Of a stretch of DNA of 10,594 nucleotides, positions 1-2,988 are shown piece after piece (position 1 is the first letter of the stretch; each line of letters starts with the position of its first letter). Source of the stretch: a virus; IMG/VR virus record IMGVR_UViG_3300028805_004235, one strand, 5' to 3'. The notes under the pieces are model-generated. The model saw nothing but the letters and a program-made list of their open reading frames with translations. It searched no databases and was not told the DNA's origin. The position numbers were made by a program, and so were the translations under genes.

Positions 1-2184
1 AAGAAGAGCCTGTAGGTCATTCTGAGCCTGAGCAGCCGCCATTTCAGCTTCTCTCTGTTTAGTACGAATATCTTCTTCATTCTGCAACTTTCGTTCCAGT
101 CTTGCCTGTTCAAGTTCAAGTTCAAAGAGAGCACTTTCATTTCTGATAGCAGCTTCTTCTTTTTCCTTTTCTGCAAGAGCAGTAGTAGCCTTTACACGAG
201 CGTCAGCATCAGAAAGTTCAATTTCTTTTCTAACAAGTTCATTCTGATAAAAATCAAGAGTTTTTGCAATAATCTGGTCTACGCTAATATCAAGAATATC
301 AACGTCATTAACAATCATACCATTATCTGTGAAAACTCTTCCAGGTTTATCTGTATCCTCAGTAATATCAAGAACAATATTTCTAATGATTTCTGTAGAA
401 TTGCCGTAGAAATCTTTAATATTGTATTTTCTGATTTCTCTCTTGACAAGAGTTCTCATATTATCACAAAGATATTTTACATAATTATTAATAGCAAACC
501 AAGAATCCTTAGAATCTTCAAGGAAACTTACACAATAATTAAGTTTAACTGATACAGCAACAGAGTCTGCGGTAACTGCATTGATAATATCTGTTACTCT
601 ATTGTTTTCAATCTGAAGGAAGGCAGTCTGGAAAGCAGGCTTAGGAGATTTAGGGGTTCCGCCAGAAAGTTCAATAGCTTCAACAGTCTCATCATAATCA
701 AGCAAACGAGTTGTAGGTCCGATTACAATTTCTCTATGACCAGCCTTAGACACAATATTTACTGCATAACCTGTCCAAATATCAAGCGCGACGACACCTT
801 CATATTTAGTATCAAGAGTAATAGTTCTAGGCTTAGTATAGCTTACTCCACGAGAAATATTTGCATTTGCTTCAAAAATTGCAAGTGTAGATTCCTGATT
901 TGCAGTAGAATATGCTGTATTAAGCATATCTGTGATTGCGGAAGATGTAGTAAGTCCCTTATGAGAAAGTTTTTCAACAGCCTGTTCAGTAAGACCATTA
1001 TTATATTTCAAAACTTCCATATTGCCAGGATACATCAATTCACATTCTTTTGCTGTTAGTTTTCTTTTAACAACAACTTCTGTGCGAGGGTCAGGTAGAT
1101 ACATCTGAGGACCACGTACTGTAGTAATTTCGCCAGTAAGTCTATTAAGGATATAACGGCCTTCGCCTTCAGGAATAGCAATTGCGTGATGCATATATTT
1201 ACCATCATACTGAATCATTGCATGCTCAGGACGAGGATAATAAATCATCTGGTCATTACCAGTAATAAACAGTTCTTCTCCAATAGGATGATGAATTGTT
1301 TTTCCATCTTTCTCTTCATCATATGCGGCAATTACTTTTACATAAATACCACTAATAGGAGAAAGTTCAAGAGCACGGAAAATAAGTCCACCCTTAGGAG
1401 CAGTTACGAATGTTTCTGTAGGTTCAGGAAATACCACGGCAGGGCCATGAATATATCTCTTTTCGCCATCTTCATCTTTAAGAATTGCATATTCAAGACG
1501 TTCAAGAGTAACAGCATCTCTTACATACTCTCCACTTCCTTCTCCATTCTCAGCACCAATAGGAAGAACTTCAATACCAGTTGGCGGAATGTAGAACGAT
1601 ACTTCCGTACCCTTAATTACAATCATCTGTCCAACGAAATACTCTTCGGACTCTGCGGTAATTTCTTTACCTTCTGCGTTTACAATGGTAGCGGTAGCCA
1701 TTCCCTTTTTAGCAGCGACCGCATCATAAACTCGTGCCAGAAGATACTGGTTGGAACGAAGTCTATGACCTCTGATTACCCTTGTCATCTGACCAGGATA
1801 AAGCGAGAAGGATGTGGGTCCCGCAATATTGATTTTTCTACCAACTTCAAGTGTAGGACTATTTACTGCTTTTGCAGGTTCAGGGTGACTGTTATCAGAA
1901 GTAGGATTCTTCAGAACAATGTACCAACCCTCAGGAGCAGACACAAAAAGCTGTCTTGCTTTTTCAAAGTCCTGTGTTTCTTCAAACTTTTTATTTTTAC
2001 CATTAAAAGTTACAAGAGATTCCTGAGCGGAAATGGTCATTGTCGTAGGTCCAGTATAAACCTTAATTGCGCCATTTGTTTTAGACTGAAGGAAACAGAA
2101 CTCATTCATAGAAAGAACAAGGTCACGAGACCGATTCATATTCATTTGGTTCTGATTATCCCATTCACTGTCATATCTTGCCAT
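1..2184 (-). CDS. Major vault protein (MVP) homolog, 3' end truncated by the window edge (728 codons in window). Standard code, no in-frame TAG, TAA or TGA.
   Basis: Reverse-complement translation from ATG (complement of 2182-2184), preceded by AAGGAG (complement of 2193-2198), runs open to position 1. Translation begins MARYDSEWDNQNQMNMNRSRDLVLSMNEFCFLQSKTNGAIKVYTGPTTMTISAQESL. Repeated ~50-aa units carry GP...(F/Y)(I/L)P.P.E motifs like MVP vault repeats: SFSLYPGQMTRVIRGHRL vs human PFPLYPGEVLEKDI, and VRGPQMYLPDPRTEVVVKRKL vs [24 protein letters not shown]. Shoulder-like segment IVIGPTTRLLDYDETVEAIELSGGTPKSPKPAFQTAFLQIENNRVTDIINAVTADSVAVSVKLNYCVSF vs human [68 protein letters not shown]. 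Also IKDFYGNSTEIIRNIVLD vs FDDFHKNSARIIRTAVFG. Ends with a Glu/Lys/Ala-rich coiled coil (ELELEQARLERKLQNEEDIRTKQREAEMAAAQAQNDLQALL) like the cap-helix. The comparison is from memory of the human MVP sequence, not a database search. Confidence 0.75.
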   Translation of the reverse strand, partial: MARYDSEWDNQNQMNMNRSRDLVLSMNEFCFLQSKTNGAIKVYTGPTTMTISAQESLVTFNGKNKKFEETQDFEKARQLFVSAPEGWYIVLKNPTSDNSHPEPAKAVNSPTLEVGRKINIAGPTSFSLYPGQMTRVIRGHRLRSNQYLLARVYDAVAAKKGMATATIVNAEGKEITAESEEYFVGQMIVIKGTEVSFYIPPTGIEVLPIGAENGEGSGEYVRDAVTLERLEYAILKDEDGEKRYIHGPAVVFPEPTETFVTAPKGGLIFRALELSPISGIYVKVIAAYDEEKDGKTIHHPIGEELFITGNDQMIYYPRPEHAMIQYDGKYMHHAIAIPEGEGRYILNRLTGEITTVRGPQMYLPDPRTEVVVKRKLTAKECELMYPGNMEVLKYNNGLTEQAVEKLSHKGLTTSSAITDMLNTAYSTANQESTLAIFEANANISRGVSYTKPRTITLDTKYEGVVALDIWTGYAVNIVSKAGHREIVIGPTTRLLDYDETVEAIELSGGTPKSPKPAFQTAFLQIENNRVTDIINAVTADSVAVSVKLNYCVSFLEDSKDSWFAINNYVKYLCDNMRTLVKREIRKYNIKDFYGNSTEIIRNIVLDITEDTDKPGRVFTDNGMIVNDVDILDISVDQIIAKTLDFYQNELVRKEIELSDADARVKATTALAEKEKEEAAIRNESALFELELEQARLERKLQNEEDIRTKQREAEMAAAQAQNDLQALL

Positions 2185-2225
2185 ATTTTTCTCCTTTTAT
2201 TTTTTAATATGTATTATATTTTTTA

Positions 2226-2828
2226 TTAATTTACGTTTTTAATTTTTTCTGCGAGGGCTTTAAGTTCTCTTTCTTTACGTTCTTTCTTTTTACGTGCCTT
2301 TTTTTCAGCTTGACGTTTACGAATGGCCGCGCGCTCTGTTTCCTCTTTTAGTTTTAATGCTTTTTCTTTCTCTTGCTTTTTAAATAACTGAATACCTTCT
2401 TTAGCTTTTTTATCCCAATATTTAATTAATCCCATATAATGAGCATATTTTTCAAAGCCTTCTCTTGTATACATTCCTTTAAAATATCTTTTTGCAAAAG
2501 CTAATAAGAAAGCATATCGTAAATCAAACATATCTTCGTCATGACAGATTGTTTTTACTTGAGTTCCATCTGAAAAAGTAAAACGCATAACTTTATTTGG
2601 AACTAACATTTCTACTTTTGTTAAATTAACAAGGATATTAGGATGATGTTTTTTAATAGTAAAGACATTAGGATAATATTCTTCAATAATATAATCAATA
2701 GAATCTTTAAAAGTAACATTTGGAATTGATATTCTATAAGGAATAAATGAAATTGAATGCTTATTAGCATCAGCATCAGCGTGCATTGGTGAAATTATAA
2801 AATTATTTTTTACTTGTGTATTTGTCAT
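2226..2828 (-). CDS. Hypothetical 200-aa protein with an extremely Lys/Arg/Glu-rich C-terminal helical tail. Standard code, TAA stop, upstream of and co-directional with the MVP homolog.
   Basis: Complete ORF in the provided track (MTNTQVKNNF...KKQEKEKALKLKEETERAAIRKRQAEKKARKKKERKERELKALAEKIKNVN). The start is preceded on the minus strand by AAGGAGA (complement of about 2836-2842). Only a 41-bp gap, containing the AAGGAG RBS, separates it from the MVP start. Confidence 0.75.
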   Translation of the reverse strand: MTNTQVKNNFIISPMHADADANKHSISFIPYRISIPNVTFKDSIDYIIEEYYPNVFTIKKHHPNILVNLTKVEMLVPNKVMRFTFSDGTQVKTICHDEDMFDLRYAFLLAFAKRYFKGMYTREGFEKYAHYMGLIKYWDKKAKEGIQLFKKQEKEKALKLKEETERAAIRKRQAEKKARKKKERKERELKALAEKIKNVN

Positions 2829-2862
2829 AAAATTTTTCTCCTTTTATCTTTTCTTTAAAAAT

Positions 2863-2891
2863 ATTATATAATAAATTTTTAAAAAGGTCAA
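2863..2891 (-). promoter_or_regulatory. Sigma70-like promoter on the minus strand: TTGACC-N17-TATAAT.
   Basis: Minus-strand -35 TTGACC is the complement of ggtcaa at 2886-2891. The 17-nt spacer covers 2869-2885. The -10 TATAAT is the complement of attata at 2863-2868. It lies about 35 bp upstream of the 200-aa gene start at 2828. Confidence 0.5.
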
Positions 2892-2973
2892 ATATGAGAA
2901 ATAGATTTTAAGGTTTTTTAATTAATAAAGAATATAAAAATATAAGGAGTGGTAATGTTTTATTACTACAAAA

Positions 2974-2979
2974 AGGAGG
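2974..2979 (+). promoter_or_regulatory. Shine-Dalgarno AGGAGG for the recoded gene starting at 2989.
   Basis: AGGAGG lies 9 nt upstream of ATG 2989-2991. The frame opens just upstream (TAA at 2953-2955). Confidence 0.6.
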
Positions 2980-2988
2980 AAAAATATT

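Follow-up and report, generated by a model that had tools for sequence, protein, structure and literature searches.

Gene organization and TAG codons of the window

The DNA analysed here is the 10,594-nucleotide stretch of the viral record IMGVR_UViG_3300028805_004235 (IMG/VR), which over its full length is referred to as the window. It contains two leftward genes, gene A, encoding a homolog of the major vault protein (MVP), and gB, which are separated by a divergent intergenic region from four rightward genes of a tail module, g1 to g4 (Table 1). Under the standard code the minus strand shows a 200-residue open reading frame (ORF) and an ORF that runs off the left end, and from position 2989 on the plus strand shows short ORFs only. 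The plus-strand genes were called with TAG read as sense and with TAA and TGA kept as stops. Read in this way, g1 to g4 resolve as four long genes and the minus-strand genes are unaltered. With code 11, ORFs of at least 100 residues cover a fraction of 0.34 of the window; the fraction rises to 0.94 if TAG is taken as a sense codon and stays at 0.34 if TGA is. Reassignment of TGA or TAA was ruled out, since the coding density gains from neither.

No in-frame TAG is present in the 928 codons of gene A and gB, against 48 in the 2,526 codons of g1 to g4 (Fisher p = 4.7e-7). If TAG were as frequent in them as on the plus strand (1.9%), none would be found with a probability of 1.9e-8 in the 928 codons, 8.6e-7 in gene A and 0.022 in gB. 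The two other frames of gene A contain 1 and 11 TAG triplets, so that its lack of TAG is specific to the coding frame. A first-pass annotation of the window had reported 928 minus-strand codons without in-frame stops, a TAA at the end of the 200-residue gene and TAG at 1.3-2.7% of the codons of each plus-strand gene from 2989 onward; all of these figures were reproduced on recounting.

For comparison, related viral loci were used, which are designated by L-numbers. The closest relative is the 142-kb genome IMGVR_UViG_3300021399_000006, of which 48 kb was stitched together (91,476-139,367) and whose MVP is 96% identical to that of the window. g1 matches phrog_30026 (1.5e-18), and its orthologs contain 2.1% TAG. 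g2 matches phrog_32343 (1.4e-39) and phrog_1887, described as ‘tail protein’ (1.1e-6), and in a homology search it hits only phAss-1 (33% identity along 98% of its length, where the annotation divides the homolog into five fragments) and EF1, VRE9 and H1, which are Enterococcus siphophages of ~140 kb. The last TAG of g3 (codon 240; 8768-8782) lies at the site where ...DYQY is followed by a TAA stop in L047 and L048, and its readthrough adds three residues (EGS) before the next TAA. Near 8955-8962 an A-run in g4 shows a 1-nucleotide deletion (GGAAAATTTTT here, GGAAAAATTTTT in L048), by which the reading passes from frame 1 to frame 0. The extra base is present in all four relatives compared (L048, L047, L049 and L004), and the change is a genuine frameshift or else an error of assembly.

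The GC content drops from 0.38 to 0.26 near the junction, and this step and the g4 frameshift would be expected if the partition were an artefact, arising from a chimeric host/phage assembly or from plus-strand ORFs that are pseudogenes. Such an origin is extremely improbable, however, as at least five independent IMG/VR contigs, one of them of 142 kb, show this junction with the genes in an identical order, and gB, directly beside the junction, has a phage-like GC content. In addition, TAG is found at conserved, even invariant, residues, and a change in a single codon restores the coding density to 0.94. A host/phage chimera was ruled out by the conserved synteny.

The gB and MVP genes are preceded by a sigma-70-type promoter, as proposed in the first-pass annotation. 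A scan of the window yields 72 promoter-like sites, with 64.5 expected in shuffled sequence, which corresponds to the chance rate. The promoter is credible because its hexamers and spacing are kept in L001, L003 (at 9339-9367), L048 and the more distant L047, where the flanking intergenic sequence diverges, and not because of its score in the scan. Strong Shine-Dalgarno sites (GGAG, GGAGG) precede gB and g1. In L003 a strong terminator with a 15-bp stem is predicted directly after the MVP gene, a second TTGACC promoter lies ahead of the RNA ligase gene, and an extended -10 promoter lies ahead of gyrB.

Table 1. Features of the window, with their positions and in-frame TAG counts.
Feature	Position	Strand	Remarks
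Gene A, MVP homolog, 5' 728 codons	1..2184	-	Off the left end of the window; in-frame TAG/TAA/TGA 0
Possible secondary MVP promoter, TTAAAA-18-TATAAT	2213..2242	-	Within the 3' end of gB; 10/12; consensus match only, weak; L003 counterpart in the same place
gB, 200 aa	2226..2828	-	TAA stop; in-frame TAG 0
Divergent intergenic region	2829..2988		TAG-free leftward operon on one side, TAG-rich rightward tail genes on the other
Sigma-70-type promoter for gB and MVP, TTGACC-17-TATAAT	2863..2891	-	11/12 consensus; best match in the window
g1, 974 aa, tail module	2989..5913	+	13 TAG (1.3%); TGA stop overlaps the g2 start (ATGA)
g2, 708 aa, tail protein	5910..8036	+	19 TAG (2.7%); PHROG matches
g3, 243 aa, tail module	8051..8782	+	4 TAG (1.6%); TAG-as-sense ORF
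g4, tail-fibre-like	8789..10594	+	12 TAG in 601 codons (2.0%); off the right end of the window

Distribution of TAG codons among gene functions

The region to the left of the window is represented in L025, which overlaps the left end of the window over 1,310 nt with one mismatch. In this locus the MVP gene ends at TAA with no TAG and is followed by genes for an RNA ligase, an AAA_33 kinase, a metallophosphoesterase and a 147-residue protein, all without TAG. The minus-strand genes thus show no need of TAG readthrough beyond position 1. Further on lie a holin gene (1 TAG), a gene for a GH25-CHAP endolysin (7 TAG) and gyrB (0 TAG).

Among the orthogroups of 17 recoded loci the use of TAG is bimodal, amounting to either 0% or 1.2-2.2%. 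No TAG is present in the orthogroups of MVP (13,470 codons), RNA ligase (5,673) and GyrB (5,147), nor in those of the AAA_33 kinase, two metallophosphoesterases, RNase H, GyrA, gB and the pyrimidine-dimer glycosylase. The orthogroups with 1.2-2.2% TAG are the tape measure, g1, g2, g3, the fibre and two endolysin types. In the 142-kb relative the genes for DNA ligase, GyrA, GyrB, RNA ligase, kinase, phosphoesterase, MVP and gB are TAG-free, DnaB having one TAG, and the TAG-rich genes comprise the g1-g4 tail block (1.3-2.7%), the endolysin (1.6%) and several small genes near head-like genes. Genes without TAG number 18 in the 48 kb of this relative, compared to 6.0 expected at a uniform rate. 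In the complete phAss-1 genome TAG-containing and TAG-free genes form 39 runs, compared to 52.6 expected (P = 0.004). The partition of TAG is strong per gene and tracks function, and the genome is a mosaic and not composed of two code blocks.

A lysis cassette lies inside the TAG-free block (L003 15964-17687; L025 5660-7374). It consists of an r1t-type holin with 0-1 TAG and a GH25-CHAP-GW endolysin with 7-10 TAG; no terminator is predicted between the cassette and the TAG-free genes upstream, and a bidirectional terminator lies behind it. In L003, the stretch that begins at the kinase gene and includes the whole endolysin gene is without a predicted terminator. An endolysin gene with 8 TAG lies between the TAG-free cl6/holin genes and gyrB. 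Two further genes of the 142-kb relative carry TAG near the replication genes, encoding an AAA_24 ATPase (1.2%) and a coiled-coil/GIY-YIG protein (6.6%). The latter consists of 318 residues, in which a membrane segment at the N-terminus is joined by a coiled coil and, at the C-terminus, by the nuclease domain (contig ~97,438-98,394), and its gene has the highest TAG density that was encountered, amid replication genes that are nearly TAG-free.

The distribution is somewhat better accounted for than not by a mechanism in which TAG would serve as a translational gate on the tail and lysis genes. The window spans a conserved divergent junction. In the leftward direction the sigma-70-type promoter would drive gB and MVP, both readable with the standard code. 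In the rightward direction, with ~2% TAG in the tail genes, release factor 1 would end translation at these codons in a naive cell, and full-length tail proteins would be formed only after the phage CUA tRNA, which in this lineage apparently inserts glutamate, has accumulated. The TAG gate would act independently of transcription. In this scheme we infer the early and late timing, the termination at TAG ahead of the tRNA, the charging of that tRNA and the nature of the host. The TAG-rich endolysin inside the TAG-free block provides the best single argument that fits such a gate: if the endolysin is co-transcribed with the TAG-free genes, as the gene arrangement leads us to infer, its TAG codons would be the sole barrier to early synthesis.

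Several observations weigh against translational gating. The terms early and late derive from gene function alone, and the codon optimisation of the MVP gene, described below, could account for its absence of TAG without any role of timing. The window contains no suppressor tRNA, the 48 kb of the closest relative contain no tRNA at all, and the sole Glu-like suppressor that was found sits in a more distant genome, the MVP of which is 60% identical to that of the window. Clustering into blocks is marginal in the 48 kb of the 142-kb relative, with 14 runs of TAG-containing and TAG-free genes compared to 18.8 expected (P = 0.07). Exceptions to the functional division occur in both directions: three genes of 831, 570 and 407 residues that match tail or receptor-binding PHROGs and a 1,287-residue fibre-like gene are TAG-free, and the holins have 0-1 TAG, while among the replication genes the AAA_24 recombination ATPase has 4 TAG, DnaB has 1 and the GIY-YIG gene has 21. 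The possible lytic switch put forward in the first-pass annotation is supported in part. The division of the genes by TAG is genuine, conserved and related to function, and the junction and its promoter are conserved as well. The genome is, however, a mosaic with exceptions both ways, and the MVP gene has a further reason to lack TAG. Likewise, counting TAG per gene against function confirms an enrichment in structural and lysis genes and a depletion in replication genes, from which the TAG-free fibres and the TAG-bearing AAA_24 ATPase and GIY-YIG genes depart.

The major vault protein gene and other explanations of TAG avoidance

The product of gene A shows a Pfam match to MVP_shoulder (PF11978; 1.5e-21, 77.1 bits with a cut-off of 25) and weaker matches to PF17795 (Vault_3; 31.5 bits, cut-off 28.8) and PF01145 (Band_7; 25.5 bits, cut-off 23.6). 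In a search of the PDB, residues 328-782 of a full-length MVP ortholog align to residues 331-808 of rat/human MVP with E = 4e-17, the similarity being collinear across the repeats, shoulder and cap-helix. From these alignments, gene A is a true major vault protein homolog. The full-length gene encodes ~833 residues and ends at TAA in L025 and L003. More than 6,000 relatives of this MVP are present in the databases, many of them on contigs of 120-190 kb, and 118 of the best 120 have a length of 823-835 residues. MVP is encoded by 46 viral loci of IMG/VR, at 55-97% identity, by unannotated phage genomes of 462-735 kb (LR756500-3) at ~42% identity, and on contigs of metagenome-assembled genomes (MAGs) of Bacilli, Erysipelotrichaceae and Clostridia. 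This occurrence marks MVP as one of the core genes of a very large phage family. Phage-type MVP contigs are also found in MAGs of Methanobrevibacter and Saccharibacteria (L143, i.e. CACYVR010000001.1 of 138,782 bp, and L144), which are probably mis-binned phage genomes. MVP and two neighbouring small proteins gave no match in NCBIfam and PADLOC.

Phage MVPs were first described in 2023, with unknown function (Santos et al., bioRxiv 10.1101/2023.11.10.566534). The viral MVPs of Caudoviricetes sp. ctOa11 and ct2Ri15 are likewise phage MVPs of ~810-830 residues with repeats, shoulder and cap-helix, and ctOa11 has itself been given as a TAG-recoded phage that carries CUA tRNAs (Babkin et al. 2023, PMC10607447). 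The core-gene status of MVP, its constant absence of TAG, its codon optimisation and its own promoter and terminator go beyond the description in the preprint of Santos et al.

The codon usage of the MVP gene is extreme and is matched by no other gene of the window. Its GC content is 0.38, compared to 0.26-0.28 for the tail genes; the leucine codons TTA and CTT occur 0 and 42 times (118 and 27 times in the tail genes), the isoleucine codon ATA does not occur (92 times in the tail genes), and the glutamine codons CAG and CAA occur 23 times and once (10 and 69 times in the tail genes). In this codon tally the tail genes contain 47 TAG. The tRNA arrays of the family include Leu(UAA), Ile(UAU) and CUA tRNAs, which are the readers of TTA, ATA and TAG. 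Devoid of all three codons, the MVP gene should therefore be fully translatable in an unmodified host cell, and its codon usage fits abundant translation from host resources alone. A core gene that is codon-optimised and independent of the phage tRNAs suggests an abundant protein made with the resources of the host, which provides a handle on the function of MVP.

Expression level might by itself account for the avoidance of TAG, if suppression is leaky in competition with release factor 1, so that TAG, together with other poorly decoded codons, is purged from genes that need a very high or very accurate output, MVP foremost, and accumulates by drift in genes that tolerate some truncation. This is an unlikely but not negligible alternative. 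It is in line with the extreme codon bias and the higher GC content of the MVP gene, with a high-GC, CAG-preferring gene of 264 residues in the structural region of L047 that has no TAG (its 260-residue counterpart in the 142-kb relative has one) and with a TAG-free, CAG-preferring vWA/DUF7788 gene. The 264-residue protein of L047 was considered as a capsid candidate, and a sequence search of the PDB gave chance-level matches only. However, the genes for the kinase, the phosphoesterases, RNA ligase, DNA ligase and gyrase, which have the average codon usage of the phage (105 TTA and 64 ATA in 3,360 codons), are just as free of TAG, with one TAG in total. Because these unoptimised enzymes are equally TAG-free, codon optimisation cannot explain the whole pattern. 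The same is seen for gB, the orthologs of which in six recoded loci have unoptimised codons and no TAG in 1,121 codons. Moreover, the endolysins and the GIY-YIG nuclease, products that would be harmful if made prematurely, are among the most TAG-rich genes, which fits gating better than drift.

gB has a conserved Lys/Glu-rich C-terminal tail. It gave no match in Pfam, PHROGs, NCBIfam or PADLOC, and an exact look-up in an assembly index returned no record. In L047 (4627-6819; g2 70% identical) gB adjoins the RNA ligase block with no MVP gene in between; since L047 thus has gB without MVP at that position, gB is not strictly tied to MVP. Just downstream of MVP, the genes for the RNA ligase (PF09414), the AAA_33 kinase and the metallophosphoesterase form a TAG-free trio (L003 13018-15359; L025 2536-5062), which presumably recalls the T4-like RNA/tRNA repair set with Rnl and Pnkp functions.

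A different history of the genes could also produce the partition, the TAG-free genes being recent imports from standard-code genomes and the intergenic region 2829-2988 a recombination seam. Signs of exchange are indeed present. The TAG-rich tail block is immediately followed, without a change of strand, by TAG-free fibre or receptor-binding genes of higher GC content (0.31-0.42; L048 16692-22070 and 32515-42538 of the stitched relative), which may be recent imports from standard-code phages. Phage MVPs have been placed inside a bacterial clade (bioRxiv 10.1101/2023.11.10.566534), and MVP is missing from its position in L047. In the genome represented by L026 and L057, MVP is 60% but GyrA 92% identical to that of L003, and this disagreement indicates mosaic exchange. 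Nevertheless, MVP, RNA ligase, kinase, phosphoesterase and gyrase are present throughout the family at 55-97% identity, in Glu-type, Gln-type and standard-code members (the types are described below), and are TAG-free in all recoded genomes sampled. The full length of nearly all of the best MVP homologs implies that no in-frame stop occurs across the family. Over the same divergence the adjoining tail genes have gained and lost TAG repeatedly. Because the conserved genes stay TAG-free while the tail genes turn over TAG, the pattern reflects sustained selection against TAG and not a lack of time, and recent import is a doubtful explanation of the partition, less probable than an effect of expression level.

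Meaning of TAG, suppressor tRNAs and phage lineage

In alignments of the TAG-rich orthogroups, the residues opposite TAG are E in 44%, D in 12%, Q in 11% and K in 7% of cases. As controls, Glu codons face E in 58%, D in 10% and Q in 6%, and Gln codons face Q in 69% and E in 7%. The mean log-likelihood of the TAG partner profile is -2.05 as Glu versus -3.04 as Gln. L049 is a standard-code locus that shares the tail genes; in alignment with it, TAG stands opposite E at 40 of 96 sites and opposite Q at 9, with control values of 39% E for Glu codons and 40% Q for Gln codons; for the window, the corresponding 21 TAG sites give E 10 and Q 1. The conserved columns from 137 loci combine TAG with E 36 times, with Q 17 times and with any other residue at most 3 times. 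This E/Q split follows lineage: L047 (E 15, Q 0), L004 (E 10, Q 0) and the window (E 11 and Q 1 among 21 informative sites) are of the Glu type, and L100, L109, L114, L119 and L121 are Q-dominant by the same method. The Q-dominant sister lineages therefore constitute an internal control, which demonstrates that the conserved-column method can return Q. Within the close clade, TAG shares independent columns with Glu codons only in 33 cases and with Gln codons only in 3. TAG in L057 stands at sites where 37/37, 40/40 and 38/39 homologs have Glu, and the Glu-type related loci include L001-L005, L047, L048, L057, L102 and L108.

A first pairwise count at 70-90% identity was mixed (20 E codons, 15 Q codons); because a few sites were counted repeatedly, it was rejected as an artefact on the evidence of the column count. 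A single site in g3 of L048 pairs TAG with Gln, which is a caveat to the Glu reading. In the group of L028, L042 and L045, only L029 leans to Q, at two sites. Typing of phAss-1 with the loci of the window family gave E 9, Q 7 and K 6 by majority, with Q at two strong sites, phAss-1 being too distant. In Lak phages, Q is found at 75-85% of the informative sites and E occasionally.

Taken as a signature of decoding, these residue profiles make it quite probable that TAG is decoded as glutamate in the lineage of the window. With greater confidence, the TAG sites can be regarded as evolutionary equivalents of Glu sites. The signature of code 15, in which TAG stands for Gln, was not seen in this lineage. 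In crAss-like phages code 15 has been validated proteomically (Peters et al. 2022, PMC9523058); like those phages, the window uses TAG as sense and keeps TAA and TGA as stops, but the signature of its TAG codons is Glu and not Gln. In recoded gut phages, only the reassignments TAG to Gln and TGA to Trp have been observed (Borges et al., bioRxiv 10.1101/2021.08.26.457843). A rather probable reading, if a shade less so than the decoding itself, is that a single family of MVP phages of ~130-190 kb harbours two reassignments of TAG, to Glu in the lineage of the window by a suppressor derived from or mimicking tRNA-Glu, and to Gln in sister lineages by a tRNA-Gln-like suppressor.

No tRNA genes were found in the window by a tRNA scan and no Rfam families by an Rfam scan. 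tRNAs with a CUA anticodon are present in the more distant family members L028, L042, L045 and L137, so that the suppressor tRNA anticipated in the first-pass annotation exists in distant relatives and is absent from the window and from the 48 kb of its closest relative. The CUA tRNA of L137 (complement 4917-4993 of IMGVR_UViG_3300037400_003528, from the same genome as L057) is part of an array of 28 tRNAs. Its acceptor stem and discriminator match only the tRNA-Glu(UUC) of the array (6/7 in the 5' strand, GGGCTA in both for the 3' strand, and T73), the match of the acceptor stem to any other array tRNA being at most 4/7. Its D-stem, GTC/GAC, is that of tRNA-Glu(CUC), and its variable loop is 4 nt in the ARAGORN fold. 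Whole-sequence identity leaves the isotype of this suppressor ambiguous (Asn 0.68, Glu 0.64), and the comparison of stem and discriminator alone is informative. The CUA tRNAs of L028 and L042 resemble tRNA-Gln, and L028 (20623-20698), L042 (21133-21208) and L045 (20504-20600) have a tRNA-Gln-like CUA tRNA that is flanked by the cl6/RNase H genes and by gyrB. This slot corresponds to that of the holin-endolysin cassette in the close relatives of the window. An exact search with the 15-nt anticodon arm (103 contigs) returned, among the 80 listed, no closest relative and no second suppressor of the L137 type. phAss-1 (L147-L149, OQ749652; 62445-62610, 105747-105820) has three dissimilar CUA tRNAs, one of 88 nt with an insert, one tRNA-Gln-like and one adjoining tRNA-Glu(CUC). 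In the 48 kb of the 142-kb relative no genes for release factors or aminoacyl-tRNA synthetases were seen.

The source of the window is, as its sequence and those of its relatives indicate, a TAG-recoded gut or rumen siphophage of ~140 kb and low GC content that most likely infects a Firmicutes host with the standard code. The window is assigned to the broad Firmicutes siphophage group treated by Babkin et al. (PMC10607447) because g2 matches phAss-1 and Enterococcus siphophages, and its relatives show Firmicutes-type features, including GH25/CHAP/GW and amidase/SH3 endolysins and r1t-type holins. The strong Shine-Dalgarno sites and the MVP homologs on MAG contigs of Bacilli, Erysipelotrichaceae and Clostridia also fit such a host. 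A megablast search of the whole window against 50,697 phage records gave no match. phAss-1 has been described as a phage of 136 kb with a very long tape measure and TAG in 41 of 147 ORFs, including tail genes, for which decoding of TAG as Gln was reported (PMC10607447). phAss-1 and the proposed Phassvirus group (GenBank OQ749652) resemble the phage of the window in genome size, in the tape measure, in the presence of TAG in tail genes and in the homologous g2, and resemble its relatives in large tRNA arrays with CUA suppressors. On the other hand, phAss-1 is distant, with no match at the nucleotide level, and has no MVP homolog by tblastn. In GenBank the CDSs of phAss-1 are still annotated as pieces broken at TAG codons. 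A comparison to crAss-like and Lak phages, as suggested in the first-pass annotation, holds by analogy only, as the relatives found are phAss-1 and the Enterococcus phages EF1/VRE9; no kinship to crAss-like phages (Crassvirales) or Lak phages was seen, and the MVP at 42% identity in LR756500-3 is the sole tie to huge phages.

The combination of standard-code early genes with recoded structural and lysis genes is a published model for phages (Borges et al., bioRxiv 10.1101/2021.08.26.457843), and block-wise dual coding has been described in crAss-like phages (Yutin et al., PMC7886860; Mgcod, bioRxiv 10.1101/2022.06.29.495998). Similar to the recoded gut phages of the former study, the phage of the window has TAG in structural and lysis genes, largely TAG-free genes for DNA metabolism, a low GC content, a preference for TAA and CUA tRNAs in its relatives. 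It differs in that its lineage is a phAss-1/EF1-related siphophage with lysis genes and promoters of the Firmicutes type, and not a Bacteroidetes crAss-like or Lak phage. The split into standard-code and recoded genes is thus an already known phage strategy, to which the window adds one lineage. What looks new is the apparent glutamate meaning of TAG beside glutamine-type sisters.

TTA and ATA share the partition of TAG, and it may be that the whole set of phage tRNAs defines which genes are translatable at what time. To our knowledge, among the standard tables TAG is read as Glu only in the peritrich nuclear code (table 30), along with TAA. If the glutamate reading is correct, the present lineage would have the first viral amber-to-glutamate code. 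Gene callers and databases that apply table 15 would then place a wrong residue at ~2% of the positions of late proteins, and the idea that only the glutaminyl- and tryptophanyl-tRNA synthetases (GlnRS and TrpRS) can be co-opted for a change of the phage code would need revision. Two reassignments within one family would also mean that what selection favours is a stop codon put to regulatory use, and not any one amino acid.

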